Source: a virus
IMG/VR virus record: IMGVR_UViG_3300024268_000164
Coordinates: 1 to 40,832 of that record
Direction: 5' to 3' (one strand)
DNA: 40,832 nucleotides
Made by a program: the position numbers and the translations under genes
Notes under the pieces: model-generated
Told to the model about the DNA's origin: nothing
The model's database searches: none
The model's input: the letters and a program-made list of their open reading frames with translations, nothing else
In this document: piece after piece, positions 12,296 to 22,219 of the stretch
Layout of the letters: the number at the start of each line of letters is the position of its first letter
How positions within the stretch are numbered: the first letter of the stretch is position 1

Positions 12296-12853
12296 CTATC
12301 CAATCATTTTGGCAAGAAGCTGTTCATATAAATCTTTGTAAATTCCGGCTTCTGTTTTTGCCTTTGCCAACATTTCCGCTGTTTTAAGATGGGTTTCAGC
12401 AGGATATTGTGCAGGTACTTCCACAATCTTTTCAACAGGCACTTCCACTGTTTTCTGTTCAATGCCCAGGCACTTGGCAATGCCTTCATCAATCTGCTTC
12501 ATTTCCGCATCTGTTGCGGTTCTGATATAGTTGCCAAGCTGATGTTTTCTGCCGAATGACACCATTGCACAATCTGCATACATCATTCCACTGCACACAA
12601 TGGGAACTGTGTATGCATCCCTTTTTTCTTCATCTGTCAGGACAATGATATTCAAATATCCATATCCATTGCGGAAGTTTGCAGATACAATCAGGGCTTT
12701 CTTGATGCCCATGCCATTATTCATTTCATATTCATAAATTTCTCCACGGTTATATTCCATCTTTTCAACCTCTTTCTGATAACTTGTAATTGCCTTATAT
12801 GCTGTTACATCCACATATCCTGAACCATTGCGGATGATTTCAAAGTCTGCCAT
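12296..12853 (-). CDS. Protein with a PemK/MazF-like fold core plus N- and C-terminal extensions (tentative)
   Basis: RGEIYEYEMNNG..KKALIVSAN......LNIIVLTDE...PIV....MYADCAMVSFGRKHQLGNYIRTATDAEMKQIDEGIAKCLGI follows the MazF/PemK sequence logic. Confidence 0.45.
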   Translation of the reverse strand: MADFEIIRNGSGYVDVTAYKAITSYQKEVEKMEYNRGEIYEYEMNNGMGIKKALIVSANFRNGYGYLNIIVLTDEEKRDAYTVPIVCSGMMYADCAMVSFGRKHQLGNYIRTATDAEMKQIDEGIAKCLGIEQKTVEVPVEKIVEVPAQYPAETHLKTAEMLAKAKTEAGIYKDLYEQLLAKMIG

Positions 12854-12865
12854 TATATGTCCCCC

Positions 12866-13276
12866 CTACTTGAACGGAAGTTCTTCCTGGGATGCATCCA
12901 TGAAATCTTCTTCAGATGCAAGTGCAGGTGCTTCATTGGCATGTGTTTCATTGTTTGCTTTGCTTTCACAGAATTCCTGTTCTTCCACAATCACATCTGT
13001 GGTGTATACTTTCTGATTATCATTGTTGGTGTAGCTGCCGGTCTGAATCCTTCCCACAACACCAATCTTCATGCCCTTCTTGAAATACTTTTCTGCAAAT
13101 TCAGCAGGTTTTCCGAATACAACACAGGGAATGAAATCTGCACCCTGCTCACCTTCTCTTTTGAATCTTCTGTCTACTGCCAATCTGTATCTTGCAATTG
13201 CAATAGGTTCTGTTCCCTGGGAATATCTCACTTCCGGATCAGCCACCAATCTTCCTGTTAAAATTACTTTGTTCAT
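12866..13276 (-). CDS. ssb: Single-stranded DNA-binding protein
   Basis: MNKVILTGRLVADPEVRY...OB-fold pattern and acidic tail ending EELPFK. Confidence 0.9.
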   Translation of the reverse strand: MNKVILTGRLVADPEVRYSQGTEPIAIARYRLAVDRRFKREGEQGADFIPCVVFGKPAEFAEKYFKKGMKIGVVGRIQTGSYTNNDNQKVYTTDVIVEEQEFCESKANNETHANEAPALASEEDFMDASQEELPFK

Positions 13277-13294: not shown

Positions 13295-14224
13295 TTATTG
13301 TTTTTGATATTCTTCAAATGTTTTGCATTTCGCAAAAATAAATCTGTTATTCACCCACCTTGCCATCTTCCGCAATTCATGGCCTTTTGGAATGTGTTCT
13401 TTGTCATAAAGCATCACATAAGCCCAATATCCCATTTCACGCAAGGTGTATATCCGTTCCAAATCTTCTTCAATGGTTGTGTCAAAATTACAAAGCACAT
13501 ACACAATCAAGTTTCTTTCATTGATTCCTGATATATCTTTGAACATCTTGAATTTTGGAAGAATCATGTCTTTGTCCTGGTATCTATCCCAGGCAAAGTG
13601 CAACTGCTTCATCTTCACCTGTTTCAGCATTTCAGCCTTTTCTTCTGTCATTAGCCGGATGTCAAGCCCTTGGTTGATGTCCACCCATGCTTTGCTGTCA
13701 ATAAGCTGTTGCAGCAGGTCCTTCCACTGCTTACATGCAAGAATATTTGGATCACACAGGACAATGTTTTTTTGTCCATTCCAAAATTCATGCAAATCAG
13801 CAACCTTCCTTGATGCTCGGCCTTCCTTTGCTTCCACATGGCAGAACGAACACCCTCTTGGGCATCCCCTTGACAAAAAGCCATAGGCTGTATCTGTTAT
13901 TCCATACAGTGAATAATCAGGATAAATGTGTTCTATTTCATGTGGCAGTTCAATGTCTTTTGACTTATCAAAGACTTCCTTGCCATCCACAAGGCTGATG
14001 CAATATCCGCTGCCACCCTTCACAATTTCATCAGAATCAACATGATACTGATAATCAGGTGAAAAGCTGAAAACTTTTGACATGTACACCTTGTCCATGT
14101 GTCCTGAAAACATTGGATCATGCCATTCCACAGAATCACCCTGTGCTTTGTGCCATGCGGACAACTTCATCAATGGTATATTGGGGAAATTATGACCATC
14201 AACATCAATCAACCCAATTTTCAT
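13295..14224 (-). CDS. Radical SAM enzyme (phage-encoded, substrate unknown)
   Basis: CX3CX2C cluster CPRGCSFC at residues 121-128. 309 aa. Sits inside the recombination/replication module. Confidence 0.75.
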   Translation of the reverse strand: MKIGLIDVDGHNFPNIPLMKLSAWHKAQGDSVEWHDPMFSGHMDKVYMSKVFSFSPDYQYHVDSDEIVKGGSGYCISLVDGKEVFDKSKDIELPHEIEHIYPDYSLYGITDTAYGFLSRGCPRGCSFCHVEAKEGRASRKVADLHEFWNGQKNIVLCDPNILACKQWKDLLQQLIDSKAWVDINQGLDIRLMTEEKAEMLKQVKMKQLHFAWDRYQDKDMILPKFKMFKDISGINERNLIVYVLCNFDTTIEEDLERIYTLREMGYWAYVMLYDKEHIPKGHELRKMARWVNNRFIFAKCKTFEEYQKQ

Positions 14225-17330: not shown

Positions 17331-17343
17331 TGATTTTAAATCA
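17331..17343. promoter_or_regulatory. Operator O2: perfect 13-bp palindrome TGATTT-T-AAATCA at the 3' end of the cro-like gene
   Basis: The same extended motif TTGTTGATTTnAAATCAC occurs at 17576-17593. Confidence 0.6.
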
Positions 17344-17554
17344 CTTCCTTAGCAAAAAAAATACGCTCTTTATCAGTCAACTTTGTGATGTTTAATATCT
17401 CGCAAAGTCCACTGATTTGTTTTGATGTGAAAGGTGTCTTGTTTTCACATTTGTTCTTAAATCCTTGTCTTGAAAGGCCTATTGTTTTTGCAATATAGCT
17501 TTTTTTCAAACCGGATTCAGCAATAATTTTTTCAAGTTCAGCCGTGTTGGTCAT
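17336..17554 (-). CDS. Cro-like HTH regulator (first gene of the lytic operon)
   Basis: 72 aa with HTH KKSYIAKTIGLSRQGFKNK. Divergent from the XRE repressor. Confidence 0.7.
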   Translation of the reverse strand: MTNTAELEKIIAESGLKKSYIAKTIGLSRQGFKNKCENKTPFTSKQISGLCEILNITKLTDKERIFFAKEVI

Positions 17555-17700: not shown

Positions 17701-18051
17701 ATGTCAAACATTGGTAAGAATATAAAAGAACGCAGGGAATCACTTGGAATGTCGCAAGATGAACTTGCCGAAAAAATGGGATATAAAAGCAGGTCTACAA
17801 TTGCCAAAATTGAAAAAGGTGTAAATGACATTACACAAACTAATATTGTTAGATTTGCAGAAATTCTTAGAACAACCCCTGCTGTACTTATGGGTTGGGA
17901 AAAGGTGCAAGAAAAAAACAATGCCATTGTGGGCATTGTTGGAAGGTTAAGAACTGATGATGAATTTCTCTCTTTGGTAGAAACACTGAACAACCTTGAC
18001 AAAGAAAAAATTGCAGGTGTTCAGCAAATGATTTCAGCTTTCCTGAAGTAA
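17701..18051 (+). CDS. XRE-family HTH repressor (probable maintenance repressor, CI-like role)
   Basis: IGKNIKERRESLGMSQDELAEKMGYKSRSTIAKIEKG is the HTH_3 pattern. ATG at 17701 follows SD GGAAGGTGGTG. Upstream of int and divergent from cro. Confidence 0.8.
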   Translation: MSNIGKNIKERRESLGMSQDELAEKMGYKSRSTIAKIEKGVNDITQTNIVRFAEILRTTPAVLMGWEKVQEKNNAIVGIVGRLRTDDEFLSLVETLNNLDKEKIAGVQQMISAFLK

Positions 18052-18132
18052 TTTCAGAATAAGGTCAAGCAAAGATATGTCATTACATTTTTCTAATAAC
18101 TCGGTGATTTTATTTATGTATTCTTCTCTCAT
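18034..18132 (-). CDS. Micro-ORF A (32 aa): MREEYINKITELLEKCNDISLLDLILKLLQES, paralog of micro-ORF B
   Basis: Hand-called. SD AAAGGAG sits 6 nt upstream. 17/32 residues are identical to the ORF at 21805..21906, with many synonymous differences. The 3' end overlaps the repressor 3' end in antisense. Confidence 0.6.
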   Translation of the reverse strand: MREEYINKITELLEKCNDISLLDLILKLLQES

Positions 18133-18152: not shown

Positions 18153-18200
18153 GAACGAATGTTCTGAATTTATTTTAAAACAAGAATTGAAACAAAACAA
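18153..18200 (-). promoter_or_regulatory. Candidate promoter for micro-ORF A (TTGTTT-17-TAAAAT) followed by the palindrome GAACGAATGTTC
   Basis: The -35 is at 18195-18200, the -10 at 18172-18177 and the palindrome at 18153-18164. Confidence 0.4.
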
Positions 18201-18298
18201 TGGTAAATGTTAGCACTTGGAATATCATGAATTTTTTACTAAAAAACATATTTTTTTCATAAAAAATAATTTTTCGTGCAAAGAAAGGGGATGGGATA

Positions 18299-20053
18299 AT
18301 GGCAAAAGTTATCATCACGAACAGGGGAGATAAAAAGAAACCTTCTTGGCAATACCGTTTTGAATTGGCAAAGGTGGATGGCAAAAGAAGATATGCAACC
18401 AAGGCAGGATTCAAAACTAAGGAAGAAGCAGAAAAGGCAGGCAACCTTGCCCTTGCTGAATATCTCCGGGCAGGCAAGCACTTTGAACCTTCTGAAATGT
18501 CTGTGGCAGATTATCTTGATTATTGGGTAAACAATTATGCCGTTGTGAATCTTGCGGATAATACAGTCAGTGCATACACCAATATCATAAAAAATCATAT
18601 CAAGCCCCGGATTGGCCACTTTATGCTGAAATCCATTGATGTAATGACATTACAGGACATGATCAATGACATATACCTTCAAAAAGGATTCACCAAGAAG
18701 TTCCTGGGGAACATCCTGAAGGTGTGCAAGGGTGCATTCGGATATGCTGCATATACTGCAAAGCTGATTCCATACAACATTGCTGAACCTGTCAAATTGC
18801 CCAAATTCGAGCCAAAAGAAGGAACAATGAAGATTCTATCCAAGGAACAAATGGAAGCCGTTCTTGACCGTTTCTGCAACTCTCCATATCAATATTATGC
18901 AATGCTTATAGGTTACTACACAGGAATGCGAATTGGTGAAGTATATGGATTGACATGGGATGATGTGGATTTGAGAAATGGCATCATTCATGTCAGACAG
19001 CAATGCAAAGTAAAAGACAAGGATGCCATGGCAGGACGGAAGCCACAAAAAGGCAAGGCATTGAACAGATGGTACCTTGGTGCCTTGAAAAACAATTCTT
19101 CATACAGAACCATCAAAATTGGTGATGAATTGCTGAATGCACTTACTGCATATAAGGAAATGCAAGAAAAGGCTGAAGAAGAATATGGTGAATTTTATGT
19201 GAAGCACTACCTGAAGGAAGAAAAGCTTGCCAATAGTAGAATAGAACACCGGATCATATCACAAACGGATGAAGCAGGCCTGTGTCCATATCCCAGGGTG
19301 AAGCTTGTGTGCGTGAAGGAAAATGGTGAATTCCGGGGAACTGTACCAATGAAATATGTTGCAAAGGTTGTCAAAACAGAAATGGGCTTTGAAGATTTCC
19401 ATTTCCACATGTTGCGACACACTCATGCCACTGTGCTTGTGTCAAATACAGAAGAATTGCAAATCAAAGATGTTTCAGAAAGGCTTGGTCATGCATCAAT
19501 TAAAACCACAATGGACACCTATGTTTCAAACACAGATGAAATGCGTGTGAAATCTATGGAAATATTTGAAAAAGTGGGCAAATTGAATGTGAAACATAGA
19601 AATGAAAGACTTTATGAGATTTGGAAAAGCACAAAGAACAGATGCAACAGCACTTCATTTTATAAAAGCCGGGGAATCAAATTTCATGATGCATGGCTTG
19701 ATTATGAAGTATTCGAGCAGTGGGCAATGGAAAACGGATATGAAGATGATTTGTCACTGATAAGAAAAGATAAAACACTTGATTTTTGCCCTGATAACTG
19801 TATATGGTCATCTGAAAACAAAAATGTGCGTGGAAAGCATGTGTGGACAGATGGACACAACATCAGATCATATTCTGTCAGAAATATTGGTTCATCATAT
19901 CAATACAGTATTACTGAATATGACCAAAAAGGCAAAAGAAAAAATATTCAAAAGGCAGGTTTTAAGTCCGAACAGGAAGCAAAAGAAGCAGCGGAAGCTG
20001 TCATTGAAGCCATGTATGAAAATGCGACAGCATTGCTCAAAAGAATAAAGTAA
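18299..20053 (+). CDS. int: Tyrosine integrase with an N-terminal Arm-binding domain and an unusual ~165-aa C-terminal extension
   Basis: Catalytic motifs YTGMRIGE, HMLRHTHAT and LGHASIKTTMDTY (Tyr codon at 19520-19522). The N-terminus SWQYRFE..GKRRYATKAGFKTKEEAEKA is Arm-domain-like. Confidence 0.9.
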   Translation: MAKVIITNRGDKKKPSWQYRFELAKVDGKRRYATKAGFKTKEEAEKAGNLALAEYLRAGKHFEPSEMSVADYLDYWVNNYAVVNLADNTVSAYTNIIKNHIKPRIGHFMLKSIDVMTLQDMINDIYLQKGFTKKFLGNILKVCKGAFGYAAYTAKLIPYNIAEPVKLPKFEPKEGTMKILSKEQMEAVLDRFCNSPYQYYAMLIGYYTGMRIGEVYGLTWDDVDLRNGIIHVRQQCKVKDKDAMAGRKPQKGKALNRWYLGALKNNSSYRTIKIGDELLNALTAYKEMQEKAEEEYGEFYVKHYLKEEKLANSRIEHRIISQTDEAGLCPYPRVKLVCVKENGEFRGTVPMKYVAKVVKTEMGFEDFHFHMLRHTHATVLVSNTEELQIKDVSERLGHASIKTTMDTYVSNTDEMRVKSMEIFEKVGKLNVKHRNERLYEIWKSTKNRCNSTSFYKSRGIKFHDAWLDYEVFEQWAMENGYEDDLSLIRKDKTLDFCPDNCIWSSENKNVRGKHVWTDGHNIRSYSVRNIGSSYQYSITEYDQKGKRKNIQKAGFKSEQEAKEAAEAVIEAMYENATALLKRIK

Positions 20054-20056
20054 TCC

Positions 20057-20397
20057 TGTACGCAAAATGCGTACACCGGAACCAATGCGTACAGAATGCG
20101 TACAAAATGCGTACAGGACCAAAAAAACACATATTTTAAATTATGAAGCAATCGCTAGAAACCGCATAAAATCAGGGTTTTTTCAGTTTCGTCCACAACA
20201 CTTCTTATACTTCTTACCACTTCCGCATGAAGTTTTTTGGGATATATTTATCGTAATTTATTATCACTTTGTATCACCTTGAAACACCGATAAATACAGT
20301 GGTATCAAGGAAAAACAATACTTTTCATCACTTTTTATCATTTCTTATTATTATGTGCAATTCTGCTAGTGCGTACAAAATGCGTACACAGTACGCA
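20057..20397. other. attP-like region: arm-type sites TGCGTACA (5 left, 3 right) flanking a ~250-bp AT-rich core
   Basis: Sites are at 20057 (inverted), 20068, 20086, 20097 and 20108 (the last three phased at 11 bp), and at 20370, 20381 and 20391 (inverted, partial). Lies immediately after int. Confidence 0.7.
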
Positions 20398-20406
20398 AAT
20401 ATAAAA

Positions 20407-20440
20407 AATAGCCACCGTTTTGGTGGCTATTTTATTTTTT
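20407..20440. terminator. Bidirectional rho-independent terminator
   Basis: AATAGCCACC-GTTTT-GGTGGCTATT with T-runs on both strands. Ends the 20427..20945 gene and would stop readthrough from int. Confidence 0.75.
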
Positions 20441-20945
20441 GAATATAAGAATATGCACTCCGGTGTTTTTCAACATAATTTATGCATTCTTCATCCATCA
20501 CTTCATAATATGTTTGTAGTGAATCATAAAAATTTTGATATTGCCTTATTTGTGCTTTTTCTGTTTTCAATCCTTTTGCTTTGGTTTCAACGGTTTTATA
20601 ATATCTTGTTAAAAACTCATAAATACACCTGTGTTTATTTTGATGAAATTCTTTTAGTACATCACTCGGCTTTACATCCTTAAAAGATACATAGGGTTCA
20701 AACATGACCAAATCAGTTGCTTTTTCTTCCATCAGTTTCAACCTAGAAAAGAATACATCCGGTTTTACTGTTTCCGTTATGGGTTTTTTACAATCATTTA
20801 TTATACGCAAATCGTTATTGATTCTAGGCAATGTCATTTCTAATAATTGGTTTTTATTAAATTTCAATCGTGGAAGTGGTTCTTCCAGTAATGCATTTTG
20901 CCATTTTAAAAGTTTGTCATTCTTTCCAAAACCAAATATACTCAT
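20427..20945 (-). CDS. Hypothetical protein of unknown function (172 aa from MSIFGFGKND), AT-rich, attP-proximal
   Basis: SD AGAGGGGG upstream. Co-directional with and 14 nt downstream of the LexA-like gene. No recognisable motif and no TM segment. Confidence 0.65.
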   Translation of the reverse strand: MSIFGFGKNDKLLKWQNALLEEPLPRLKFNKNQLLEMTLPRINNDLRIINDCKKPITETVKPDVFFSRLKLMEEKATDLVMFEPYVSFKDVKPSDVLKEFHQNKHRCIYEFLTRYYKTVETKAKGLKTEKAQIRQYQNFYDSLQTYYEVMDEECINYVEKHRSAYSYIQKIK

Positions 20946-20959
20946 ATACATACCCCCTC

Positions 20960-21658
20960 TTATGTTCTTATTACACCGCAACATGTGCCAATGTATTGCA
21001 CTTCATCCATCCGCTTCAGAACAATGTCTGAATCCTGATTATGTAGGCACTGCAACCGGTAATGTCCATCTTCTTCAATGAATTTCCTGATATATACCCT
21101 ATCACCACGCAAGAAGGCAGCACATTCTTCATTGCCTGGGAAACGATTTTCAAAAAGAATAACATCCCCTTTGCAGAATTTTGGTGCCAAGTCATTGCTT
21201 GTCATTTTAATTGCAATATAAGCTTCTTGTGTGCCTGTTTCAATTTCAATGGTTTCACATGTATCATATATGATTCCCTTGTGTATTTCCCCATGTGGAA
21301 GAAGGCAGGGAATCTTGTGTTTCATGAAGGCTTCCCTTTCACTTTTTACCGAACCTGCTTCATACTTGGCAATCAATTCAATGATGCTTTTTCCATGCGG
21401 ACCGCATGACCGGTAATTCCGCAATATAGCCTTTTCCTGTGGTGTATGCGGACATTTTCCCATAAGGCAATTCATACTGTGACCGGTTGCTTCTGATATA
21501 GCCATGACGGTTGAAACCTTTGGATCAGGTGTTTTTCCATAATATATATTTCTGATTGTGTCTAATGGCAGTCCGCTTTCGTCTGCCAATTTCTCTTTGG
21601 TCCACCCCAATTCGGCAAGGATTTCTTGTAACCTTTTGCTTAAAATTTTACCCGGCAT
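20960..21658 (-). CDS. LexA/CI-like regulator: N-terminal XRE HTH plus C-terminal S24 peptidase-like domain
   Basis: N-terminus LSKRLQEILAELGWTKEKLADESGLPLDTIRNIYYG. C-terminus KGDVILFEN....ECAAFLRGDRVYIRKF......YRLQCLHN....IVL.....QYIGTCCGVIR parallels LexA DGDLLAV...VVVARIDDEVTVKRL...VELLPEN...IEGLAVGVIR. Ala-Gly at residues 101-102. Confidence 0.75.
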   Translation of the reverse strand: MPGKILSKRLQEILAELGWTKEKLADESGLPLDTIRNIYYGKTPDPKVSTVMAISEATGHSMNCLMGKCPHTPQEKAILRNYRSCGPHGKSIIELIAKYEAGSVKSEREAFMKHKIPCLLPHGEIHKGIIYDTCETIEIETGTQEAYIAIKMTSNDLAPKFCKGDVILFENRFPGNEECAAFLRGDRVYIRKFIEEDGHYRLQCLHNQDSDIVLKRMDEVQYIGTCCGVIRT

Positions 21659-21670
21659 ACATTTCCCCCT

Positions 21671-21690
21671 GTGTCAAGAATGACACCGCA
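21671..21690. promoter_or_regulatory. Operator-like site GTGTCA-AGAA-TGACACCGCA between the LexA-like gene and micro-ORF B
   Basis: Perfect 6-bp inverted repeat with a 4-bp spacer. 15 of its 20 positions recur at 39317..39336. Confidence 0.6.
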
Positions 21691-21713
21691 ACTAACATTT
21701 TTCGACAAAAATA

Positions 21714-21742
21714 ATGTTAAACTTGATATTTCTTTTTGTCAA
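21714..21742 (-). promoter_or_regulatory. Candidate promoter of the LexA-like gene (TTGACA-17-TAACAT)
   Basis: The -35 is at 21737-21742 and the -10 at 21714-21719. The operator lies downstream of the -10. Confidence 0.4.
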
Positions 21743-21804
21743 TATTTGGGATAAATTTTAGATATAACCAATTGGCTTCTTTTACAAAAATGAGGTATAA
21801 CAAA

Positions 21805-21906
21805 ATGGGTGAGGAATATGTTGAAAAAATTATACTAAAGGTAAGGGAATGCAAAGATATAGCATTGTTGGATATGATACTGAAGATATTGGTTGCATCA
21901 AAATAA
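21805..21906 (+). CDS. Micro-ORF B (33 aa): MGEEYVEKIILKVRECKDIALLDMILKILVASK, paralog of micro-ORF A
   Basis: Hand-called. SD GAGGT upstream. Divergent from the LexA-like gene. Its stop is immediately followed by a perfect bidirectional terminator. Confidence 0.6.
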   Translation: MGEEYVEKIILKVRECKDIALLDMILKILVASK

Positions 21907-21936
21907 AAAGGGCAGGGATTCATTTCCCTGCCCTTT
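21907..21936. terminator. Bidirectional rho-independent terminator
   Basis: AAAGGGCAGGGA-TTCATT-TCCCTGCCCTTT, a 12-bp perfect stem with T-runs on both strands. Ends the late operon (minus strand) and micro-ORF B (plus strand). Confidence 0.85.
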
Positions 21937-21940
21937 CTTT

Positions 21941-22219
21941 TTACTGATGCTCTAATTTTACAATCTTTTCATTGATTGCCTTGATCTGTTCTTCCACCAC
22001 AGGCATCCGGTGTGCAAAGTTATTGTGTTCCCTGACTTCCCTGGTCAATTCATCCAATTTGTATTCAATCAGGGCAACTGTTTGCTGTTGCTTTGCTTCC
22101 GTTTCCATTGCGTGGGCCTTATGTTCTGCCAATGTCTTTTTGTGTGTGAAGTGATTGTTTATCAAACACACAGTAAGTGTCACTGCACCCCCAATTCCTG
22201 CTGCAATAATTGTTTCCAT
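21941..22219 (-). CDS. Small N-terminally membrane-anchored coiled-coil protein (BhlA/UviB-like topology; holin or lysis-accessory candidate)
   Basis: TM segment IIAAGIGGAVTLTVCLI followed by a long helix. Last gene of the late operon, where lysis genes normally sit. Confidence 0.5.
   Translation of the reverse strand: METIIAAGIGGAVTLTVCLINNHFTHKKTLAEHKAHAMETEAKQQQTVALIEYKLDELTREVREHNNFAHRMPVVEEQIKAINEKIVKLEHQ

Follow-up and report, generated by a model that had tools for sequence, protein, structure and literature searches.

A portable regulatory cassette with a 33-codon gene in a temperate phage genome and its candidate role in relieving a non-cleavable repressor

The DNA analysed here is the genome of a temperate phage, IMG/VR virus record IMGVR_UViG_3300024268_000164, positions 1 to 40,832 (the whole 40,832-nt stretch, hereafter the window), and all coordinates were read straight from its sequence. 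In the interval 21659-21936 a 33-codon gene, ORF B, stands back-to-back with the gene of a 232-aa regulator and is closed by a terminator. An earlier note on this DNA, made from the letters, took the interval for a self-contained unit in which a cleavable LexA-like sensor of the phage may repress a candidate SOS-triggered micro-antirepressor, directed in turn against the short XRE repressor. We find that the interval forms the cargo side of a portable cassette made up of the regulator, its own promoter, a palindromic operator and an overlapping divergent promoter. The regulator carries other residues at the positions of the catalytic dyad, and ORF B has a paralogue, ORF A, that overlaps the repressor gene and has the predicted host LexA box upstream. 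The features are collected in Table 1.

Table 1. Features of the regulator-ORF B interval, of the repressor-ORF A locus and of the region between them
Feature	Position	Strand	Remarks
XRE/CI-like maintenance repressor gene	17701-18051	plus	116 aa; HTH and conserved helical C-terminal domain (...KNNAIVGIVGRLRTDDEFLSLVETLNNLDKEKIAGVQQMISAFLK), no S24 domain
Intrinsic terminator of the ORF A transcript	17909-17940	minus	AACAATGCC-CACAAT-GGCATTGTT followed by a T-run; antisense within the repressor coding sequence
ORF A	18034-18132	minus	32-aa paralogue of ORF B, MREEYINKITELLEKCNDISLLDLILKLLQES; tail-to-tail with the repressor gene, 18-nt overlap
Predicted host LexA (SOS) box	18153-18164		GAACGAATGTTC; between the ORF A -10 TAAAAT (18177-18172) and ribosome binding site (RBS) AGGAG (18143-18139)
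Tyrosine integrase gene	18299-20053		584 aa, unusually long
att-like direct repeats	20063-20125 and 20370-20398		TGCGTACA(A/G)AATGCGTACA; between the integrase stop and the terminator 20405-20433
172-aa gene (phrog_7974, function unassigned)	20427-20945	minus	transcribed after the regulator; PHROG match; insertion relative to relatives
232-aa regulator gene	20960-21658	minus	N-terminal XRE-type HTH, Cys/His-rich linker, C-terminal S24-fold domain without Ser/Lys dyad
Intergenic spacer regulator-ORF B	21659-21804		146 bp; regulator start codon read as CAT on the plus strand at 21656-21658, ORF B ATG at 21805
Regulator RBS	21664-21670	minus	AGGGGGA, read from sequence; purine-rich block at the same place in 16 aligned loci
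Operator palindrome	21671-21686	none	GTGTCA-AGAA-TGACAC, 16 bp, exact; conserved position and compensatory changes in homologous loci
Conserved element	21700-21709	minus	TGTCGAAAA; just downstream of the regulator -10, in most of 16 aligned upstream regions
Candidate ORF B promoter P1	21702-21730	plus	TCGACA 21702-21707, 17 bp, GATATT 21725-21730
Regulator promoter	21714-21742	minus	-35 TTGACA 21742-21737, 17-bp spacer, -10 TAACAT 21719-21714; 10/12 consensus matches
ORF B RBS	21792-21795	plus	GAGG, 9 nt before the ATG, read from sequence
ORF B	21805-21906	plus	33 aa, MGEEYVEKIILKVRECKDIALLDMILKILVASK; 33 codons and TAA; predicted two-helix hairpin, helix-turn-helix-shaped
Bidirectional intrinsic terminator	21907-21936	both	stems 21907-21918 and 21925-21936, 6-nt loop, dG -22.4 kcal/mol

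The regulatory cassette and its cargo

Every sequence feature listed in the earlier note was found in the letters, most of them look functional by comparison with related loci, and the unit of operator, promoter elements, ORF B and terminator is real and self-contained. The inverted repeat upstream of the regulator exceeds chance: it is the only perfect copy in the window, matches with at most one mismatch are two where 0.11 are expected, and none of 100 shuffles gave two. The palindrome GTGTCA-N4-TGACAC is retained 5' of about 20 homologous regulator genes, and its two arms change together (GTGTCG..CGACAC in L029, GTGGCA..TGCCAC in L034, GTGTCT..AGACAG in L039). Judged from this comparison, it appears to behave as a conserved operator of the neighbouring regulator. 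Relative to the regulator's own promoter it spans about +22 to +37; this position, downstream of the start site, suggests autoregulation. The centre of the operator is about 59 bp upstream of the candidate transcription start of ORF B, a distance compatible with activation as well as with repression of the cargo.

The promoter of the regulator is well conserved, both hexamers being nearly invariant in 16 aligned homologous upstream regions and the -35 TTGACA entirely so. The hexamers TTGTCA (plus strand, 21736-21741) and TTGACA (minus strand, 21742-21737) are both present, as the earlier note had described, but the use of the former as a -35 element for ORF B could not be sustained: it is probably the mere complement of the regulator's own -35, and the -10 that it would need, TAGATA, lies outside the conserved block and brings the promoter to 8/12 matches only. 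The best candidate for an ORF B promoter by consensus match, and the better conserved one, is P1, which overlaps the regulator promoter back-to-back. Its hexamers are inside the conserved cassette and recur at fixed spacing in about 10 of the 16 loci; the minus-strand TGTCGA is, on the cargo strand, the TCGACA of the P1 -35. At the other end of the unit the 12-bp perfect-stem terminator, with T-runs on both strands, serves ORF B and a convergent 92-aa gene (21941-22219, minus). Its stem begins directly after the ORF B stop codon, and not 1 nt further on as the earlier note had it.

By blastn, a block of homology with 72-79% nucleotide identity extends from the stop codon of the regulator to about position 21760 and stops there in every relative; the cassette corresponds to the regulator gene and about 100 bp upstream. 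The order TATTCCAAAT, -35 TTGACA, -10 TAACAT, TGTCGAAAA, palindrome and RBS is conserved in the 16 aligned upstream regions. The cargo beyond the block varies, and can be a gene with a Spo0A_C domain only, an SSB-like gene followed by the microORF, the microORF followed by the SSB-like gene, or the microORF alone; in the window it consists of ORF B and the bidirectional terminator only. MicroORFs placed beside the regulator (B-type) are found in 9 of 17 regulator-bearing viral contigs and in the window. They usually accompany the gene of an SSB-like protein (about 200 aa; phrog_26861, Pfam SSB; L024, L031, L036-L041, L044, L046 and L022), which precedes the microORF in L024, L031, L036-41 and L044 and follows it in L046, and the two reading frames often overlap or abut. 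The window has no SSB-like cargo gene and encodes a separate ordinary SSB at 12866-13276. In the closest relative, L024, the regulator is 87% identical.

A second variable position lies 3' of the regulator. In L001 and L002 a terminator equivalent to that at 20405-20433 of the window directly follows the regulator gene, while in the window and in L024 the slot is filled by the 172-aa gene and by a different 304-aa gene, respectively. As for the Spo0A_C-only partner, it has 115-135 aa and is divergent to the regulator, in chromosomal loci (L003, L028, L029) as well as in viral ones (L030, L032-L035, L045). On the chromosomes the neighbours are ordinary ones (proS, ftsH/tilS, two-component genes), and the presence of the pair there as well as in phages suggests a mobile sensor cassette able to drive a mimic of a sporulation regulator.

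The earlier note had suggested that the regulator may be a cleavable LexA-like sensor. It has the architecture of the S24 repressors, a DNA-binding domain followed by an S24 fold: its Pfam matches are HTH_3 and Peptidase_S24 (33.1 bits, cut-off 23.3), and the AlphaFold2 (AF2) model, built on 28 homologues (pLDDT 74), has the lambda-186 hybrid repressor, LexA, lambda cI and 186 cI as its top Foldseek matches in the PDB, with E from 2e-8 to 1e-4 for the last three. Homologues of the regulator number 369. The catalytic dyads are S119/K156 in LexA and S149/K192 in lambda cI. The regulator has Asn155 and Arg191 at these positions, with NDLAP (IKMTS-N155-DLAP) facing SMTAP of lambda (EGN-S149-MTAP), and GDRVYI-R191-KFI facing GDEFTF-K192-KLI of lambda and DDEVTV-K156-RL of LexA. 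Both residues are invariant in the 28 database homologues, and equally so in 14 more copies from phages with identities as low as 41%, and Ser154, next to Asn155, varies among S, N, T, R and G. Alignment of the regulator to LexA, cI and UmuD at profile/HMM level gave no match, and the family profile reached no S24-fold structure; the dyad was consequently assigned by hand alignment of motif and strand register, together with the fold match. The Ala-Gly of the window (A101-G102) reads AG, AS, AE, AI, AT, AN or AC in the homologues, Ala101 being invariant and the next residue not. Since Asn and Arg replace the catalytic Ser and Lys, canonical self-cleavage of this LexA/cI-fold protein is very unlikely, and the cleavable sensor of the earlier note is not supported. 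Nor does the regulator look like a LexA orthologue with an SOS box at its own promoter, which carries GTGTCA-N4-TGACAC instead.

Residues 63-90 of the regulator form a Cys/His-rich linker, NCLMGKCPH...YRSCGPHGK, in which YRxCGxHGK is invariant in the family, and the first two cysteines are missing in the two most distant members. The confidence of the AF2 model is low here (pLDDT <50 for residues 74-89). The linker could be a metal site, a redox site or a partner-binding segment.

The microprotein family and the XRE repressor

ORF B is genuinely protein-coding, as the earlier note had assumed. Several results speak for this: (i) within the window it shares 53% identity with ORF A (E 6e-8); (ii) when 1.8 billion proteins are searched with a profile made from ORF A and ORF B, 336 clusters, represented at 50% identity, are reached at E<=1e-3; (iii) pN/pS over 21 copies, at saturated synonymous sites, is 0.33 in the ORF B frame and 0.72 and 2.29 in the two others; and (iv) the predicted structure is a helical hairpin. 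All hits listed have 31-91 aa and in the longer calls the match is at the C-terminus. At least 23 metagenome contigs from several samples, most of them 20-50 kb long, have a gene call with exactly the ORF B peptide and show identical gene order. The family, unnamed and defined in this analysis, has a core of about 32 aa with the consensus MKEEYIxKIxELLxxCNDIxLLDLILxLLQKS. Neither microORF nor the family matches Pfam, NCBIfam or PHROGs, the nine family clusters looked up had no name and no NCBI or UniRef record, and a scan of a genome collection for the microprotein gave one confirmed locus only.

ORF B belongs to this family by its core residues (Y5, I9, D18, L21-L22-D23, I25 and L29) and by its score against the family HMM (E 2.7e-16, ORF B being itself among the 34 seed sequences). 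The family-invariant I9, D18, L22, D23 and L29 are all kept, as are the near-invariant Y5, L21 and I25, and Met stands in the place of L24. The AF2 model of ORF B has helices at 2-15 and 19-32 (pLDDT 82). Profile searches of the PDB brought up no solved structure related to the microprotein or to the C-terminal domain of the repressor, and Foldseek returned nothing for the 33-aa model. A type I toxin under LexA control, such as TisB or DinQ, was considered and rejected: 11 of the 33 residues are charged, and the protein is predicted to be an amphipathic hairpin, not a hydrophobic membrane-spanning segment. A recombination directionality factor was rejected likewise, since phages with the microprotein can have a serine or a tyrosine integrase.

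The canonical context of the family is that of ORF A, convergent with a repressor gene and overlapping its 3' end (A-type), and not the one of ORF B. The convergent pair of microORF and repressor was present in all 37 locus hits of three independent searches, between which some contigs recur: 13 of 13 seeded with the microprotein, 14 of 14 seeded with the regulator and having enough flank, and 10 of 10 seeded with the repressor C-terminal domain, the overlap being 18-41 nt. The pairing persists over different HTH subfamilies of the repressor and over serine or tyrosine integrases, and what the repressors share is a C-terminal domain with the pattern KKNDxIxxIVxRLRxDEEFLxLVExLxxLDxxKIxGVKQLLxAF. 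The microprotein family is thus tightly tied to a short XRE repressor, the repressor that the earlier note had named as short and apparently non-cleavable. Pfam finds HTH families only in the window repressor, which is for that reason not self-cleaving, and the repressors of the family, of 116-120 aa, are without S24 match. In four ORF B contigs examined (L064-L067) ORF A was not called by the gene callers. A 73-aa variant of the microprotein occurs in L023 (2884-3105, an Oscillospiraceae metagenome-assembled genome) and in P0249, with an N-terminal extension resembling a degenerate duplicate of the hairpin; this variant, too, is convergent with a repressor bearing the conserved C-terminal domain.

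The LexA operator consensus of Bacillus and clostridia is GAAC-N4-GTTC/T (PMC4234289). GAAC-N4-GTTC has two matches only in the whole window, at 12872 and 18153, and the latter is the box at ORF A. A GAAC-N4-GTT(C/T) within 100 nt upstream is present in 19 of 24 A-type loci, window included, where the background frequency is 3.8e-5 per nt (the nominal binomial P is 3e-42, for loci that are not all independent), and also in 8 of 10 further loci; the sites equivalent to that of the window are in the L011-L077 series. The box follows closely on the -10 of the A-type microORF and in most loci lies 27-45 nt before its ATG. Upstream of ORF B no GAAC-N4-GTT(C/T) is found within 160 nt (21645-21804). 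It is ORF A, and not ORF B, that is a candidate antirepressor gene directly preceded by a predicted host LexA operator, and the SOS connection that the earlier note had drawn to ORF B belongs, by prediction, to its paralogue. The logic of a small antirepressor under SOS control does seem to operate in this phage, via ORF A, and the boxes predict that gut Firmicutes phages of this class are SOS-inducible through the 32-aa gene.

The transcript of ORF A would end inside the repressor gene. An equivalent hairpin with T-run was found in 14 of 14 loci tested, 63-97 nt past the stop codon of the A-type microORF and antisense inside the repressor coding sequence (17940-17917 in the window). RNAalifold gave 11 pairs, seven of them with compensatory changes, and one pair of columns reads CG in eight and UA in eight sequences. 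In the family the stem arms correspond to the Asn-Asp/Asn and Ile-Val codons of KKNDxIxxIV and the T-run to Lys codons; in the window they are Asn-Asn-Ala and Gly-Ile-Val codons, with the T-run in Glu-Lys codons. The stem of the terminator is thus written in repressor codons, and the protein motif KKNDxIxxIV is also an RNA element, a clean example of dual coding.

Two further elements lie near the ORF A promoter. The putative CI operator of the CI-cro region has a 2-mismatch copy there (18172-18186 in the window) and L021 is a clear case, with no general signal across 18 loci. An inverted repeat AACAAT-N4-ATTGTT covers the ORF A -35 region at 18196-18211, imperfect in the window (AACAAT-GGTA-AATGTT), and is found at the equivalent position in L047, L048, L053, L056, L061 and L011. 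As it is kept across loci with different HTH subfamilies of CI, CI is probably not its binder.

Around these loci the genome has the following order. The XRE repressor gene faces a Cro-like gene (17336-17554, minus) with three TTGTTGATTTNAAAT copies between them. In the integrase, residues 534-572 at the C-terminus match the Arm-DNA-binding domain family, and so does a second stretch. The att-like repeats are probably arm-type integrase sites, i.e. attP; if so, the regulator and ORF B would come to lie, after integration, at the prophage end opposite to int and the repressor. The repeats are followed by the 172-aa gene, the regulator, ORF B, a holin-like gene and the tail genes. The early genes screened include Erf, NinB, SSB, RusA and a DnaD-like loader, and no recognised antirepressor was seen among the 10 early-region genes screened. 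At 12296-12853 and 13295-14224 (minus), amid the genes for recombination and replication, the early region also encodes a homologue of MazF-like growth inhibitors (phrog_1936) and a radical-SAM protein (phrog_9298). Searched by blastn against 50,697 phage records, the segment 17000-22400 gave a single 98-bp match and no close deposited relative. Rfam gave weak below-threshold matches only, most of them over the terminator at 20405-20433.

The proposed trigger and its alternatives

Taking into account that (i) the microprotein gene is constantly paired with one type of repressor; (ii) the repressor is not self-cleaving, and (iii) one copy of the gene has a predicted LexA box while the other adjoins a regulator without protease dyad, we propose that the microprotein antagonises the repressor, with copy A as the SOS trigger and copy B as a second trigger under the phage regulator. 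We hold this proposal to be evenly poised, as apt to prove right as wrong. In the model, the microprotein would act probably by binding the C-terminal domain of the repressor. Host LexA would keep copy A silent until DNA damage switches it on, and the copy A transcript, of about 250 nt, would in addition run antisense to the repressor mRNA in its 3' part. Copy B, without LexA box or antisense overlap, would be expressed when the phage regulator changes state; with a terminator of its own and nothing to be antisense to, ORF B would act, if at all, as protein. The signal of the regulator would not involve self-cleavage, and would open a second induction route that does not pass through the host DNA-damage repressor. 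Set against this model, the earlier note was right in spirit as to a small antirepressor-type gene aimed at a non-cleavable repressor and as to SOS control in the phage, and wrong in its cleavable sensor and in an ORF B wired to SOS.

Several observations weigh against our proposal. The proposed binding to, and effect on, the repressor are read from genomic linkage, and as the A copy overlaps the repressor gene their co-inheritance is partly forced, so that the linkage is suggestive and not decisive. A comparison of the microprotein profile with that of the repressor C-terminal domain by hhalign gave a probability of 0.2% and E 0.27; a SinI-type mimic of the repressor's oligomerisation domain was rejected on this lack of homology, which leaves SinI-style mimicry unsupported. 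The A and B copies of one phage are 47-60% alike, against a mean of 55% between phages, with no phage-specific matching. P1 is just a 9/12 consensus match in the promoter scan. B-type copies in relatives usually travel with the SSB-like gene, whose role the model does not explain. Lastly, the LexA box fits equally well a LexA co-factor of the kind of GIL01 gp7, or a host-targeted protein induced by SOS.

The host-targeted protein would be an effector such as an inhibitor of division or replication, similar to lambda Kil, Rac KilR or DicB, placed beside the immunity region for ease of regulation, with ORF B as a moron copy. Small prophage proteins that block division are well known beside immunity regions, an SOS box at the A-type promoters would fit a damage checkpoint, and ORF B does lie in a moron-like region, with the tail genes on one side and, on the other, the att-like repeats that follow int. 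Such an effector would leave unexplained the strict pairing with one repressor C-terminal domain across mosaic phages and the conserved antisense overlap with the repressor mRNA, and the phage would be left with no recognised inactivator of its non-cleavable repressor among the 10 early genes screened. We consider it unlikely.

About as unlikely, in our judgement, is that the microprotein is an accessory factor of LexA-fold proteins, which would bind the 232-aa regulator, or else host LexA, and modulate how it binds DNA, in the manner of GIL01 gp7 or DdrR, while leaving the XRE repressor alone. LexA-binding small phage proteins are documented (PMC9700832), the A-type copies stand behind LexA boxes as gp7 does in GIL01, and the B-type copies adjoin the LexA-fold regulator in the contigs counted above. 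However, many A-type phages (L011-L021) have no LexA-like regulator in the fetched flanks of about ±3.5 kb, the sole universal neighbour is the repressor with its conserved C-terminal domain, and neither the PDB-wide profile search, which showed no similarity to gp7, nor the empty Foldseek result for the ORF B model favours this kinship.

Linkage to the repressor is silent on the sign of the effect, and the microprotein might also stabilise the repressor or act as its co-repressor. ORF B, laid out like a moron expressed in lysogeny, with its own promoter and terminator, would then supply an extra dose that strengthens immunity. This is quite improbable, as a helper with an mRNA antisense to that of the repressor would defeat its own purpose, and so would one that host LexA silences in normal growth and that appears only on DNA damage. 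The least credible explanation, to which we attach hardly any weight, is that ORF B is a decaying remnant left after deletion of the SSB-like gene and maybe no longer expressed or needed: L024 and at least eight other contigs do carry the SSB-like gene followed by the microORF, but ORF B keeps the family-invariant residues and nearly all the near-invariant ones, has a well-spaced GAGG, follows directly on the conserved promoter block, ends at a strong terminator and recurs identically, in the same arrangement, on the at least 23 contigs from several samples.

The proposal that the microprotein antagonises the repressor can be extended into a joint reading, that in clostridial temperate phages with non-cleavable repressors induction is brought about by a microprotein of about 32 aa, for which there are two inputs, A and B, each with a wiring of its own. 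Taken as a whole it is rather doubtful. Input A may be a dual-function RNA, at once the LexA-repressed mRNA of the microprotein and an antisense to the repressor, that ends at the terminator in the repressor codons. Input B may put the microprotein under the portable pseudo-protease regulator, the one that may control, in bacterial chromosomes, the gene with the Spo0A DNA-binding domain only, and would possibly couple prophage induction to a physiological cue of the host, sporulation- or redox-related perhaps, and not to DNA damage. Since conservation is high in the microprotein as well as in the C-terminal domain of the repressor, the trigger of one phage could cross-induce co-resident prophages.

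Prophages are present in many gut Firmicutes, and to our knowledge the induction of phages with short non-cleavable repressors, as well as the cues other than DNA damage, is largely unknown. The present candidate effector is very small and widespread and lies outside the curated databases, none of its 336 clusters being in Pfam, NCBIfam or PHROGs, and its circuit would have two inputs, one copy behind a host SOS operator and one behind a phage regulator without the protease dyad of LexA. If confirmed, it would provide a sequence signature to predict SOS-inducible prophages in gut metagenomes, and cross-induction would be possible among prophages with a common repressor C-terminal domain.

Comparison with known systems

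LexA-controlled antirepressors of repressors that are not cleaved have been described for coliphage 186 (Tum), the Gifsy phages (GfoA, GfhA and GftA) and N15 (AntC) (PMC3121763). The likeness is in the uncleaved maintenance repressor and in the small gene behind a host LexA box, here ORF A, as proposed inactivator of the repressor; in this the comparison agrees with the general idea of the earlier note. The differences are that ORF B has no LexA box, that the proteins are unrelated (32-33 aa here, 146 aa in Tum), that the operator is of the Gram-positive type GAAC-N4-GTTC/T, and that the LexA-controlled copy is placed inside the immunity region, overlapping the repressor gene, whereas in those phages it is outside. 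The 232-aa regulator, in turn, recalls 186 CI, in which an HTH is joined to an S24-type fold that apparently serves oligomerisation or sensing and not proteolysis, and 2fjr, 2fkd and the lambda-186 hybrid are among its Foldseek matches. The identity to the 186 CI entries is only 11-13%, however, and no S24-fold structure was reached by the family profile at sequence level. The window regulator is moreover not the maintenance repressor, it is found in bacterial chromosomes too, with the Spo0A_C-only gene, and it has the Cys/His-rich linker.

GIL01 gp7 and Acinetobacter DdrR are small co-factors of LexA-type repressors, and the likeness is in a small phage protein with its gene near, or under control of, a LexA-type regulator (PMC9700832). 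They differ from the microprotein in having no sequence similarity to it in the PDB-wide profile search and no Foldseek match, in that the phages considered here have a CI/Cro-type switch of their own, and in that the constant partner is the C-terminal domain of CI and not a LexA-fold protein.

In Bacillus subtilis, SinI is homologous to the C-terminal domain of SinR. The microprotein resembles SinI as a short helical protein that is proposed to antagonise an XRE-type repressor through the helical C-terminal domain of the latter, but no homology links antagonist and repressor here, and the gene layout differs. For copy A only, the lambda OOP RNA offers a parallel: a short convergent transcript with an intrinsic terminator, antisense to the 3' part of the mRNA of a lysogeny regulator, cII in that case. 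Unlike OOP, the RNA of copy A also encodes a conserved protein and its terminator lies inside the coding sequence of the target; ORF B has no such overlap.

For ORF B the comparison is with the TF-smORF modules of linear plasmid-like vibriophages (VqmA-Phi/Qtip and TF72/smORF72), in which the smORF inactivates the repressor without proteolysis (Silpe et al. 2023; PMC10432266). In both cases a transcription factor (TF) gene stands beside a counter-oriented small ORF, 146 bp away here, and outside the immunity region, the XRE repressor of the window being about 3 kb off, beyond the 172-aa gene, the att-like repeats and int. In both, the small gene is independent of a host SOS operator, and inactivation of the repressor by a small protein without proteolysis, shown there, is what is proposed here. 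The proteins are unrelated, however, with 33 aa here against 57 aa in smORF72 (a 171-nt ORF); the TF of the window has a dead S24 fold, and a second, LexA-controlled copy of the small gene is present. The TF activates the smORF in the vibriophages, while here the position of the operator fits activation or repression. The phages also differ, an integrating clostridial phage with a non-cleavable repressor in one case and repA-telN plasmid-like phages in the other, those of PMC10432266 having been chosen for a self-cleaving cI. The original context of the modules, repA-telN and self-cleaving cI, is thus replaced in the window by a tyrosine integrase and a non-cleavable repressor, no search for telN or repA having been made. 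If our proposal is confirmed, the paradigms of the antirepressors and of the TF-smORF modules would both be extended to Clostridia.

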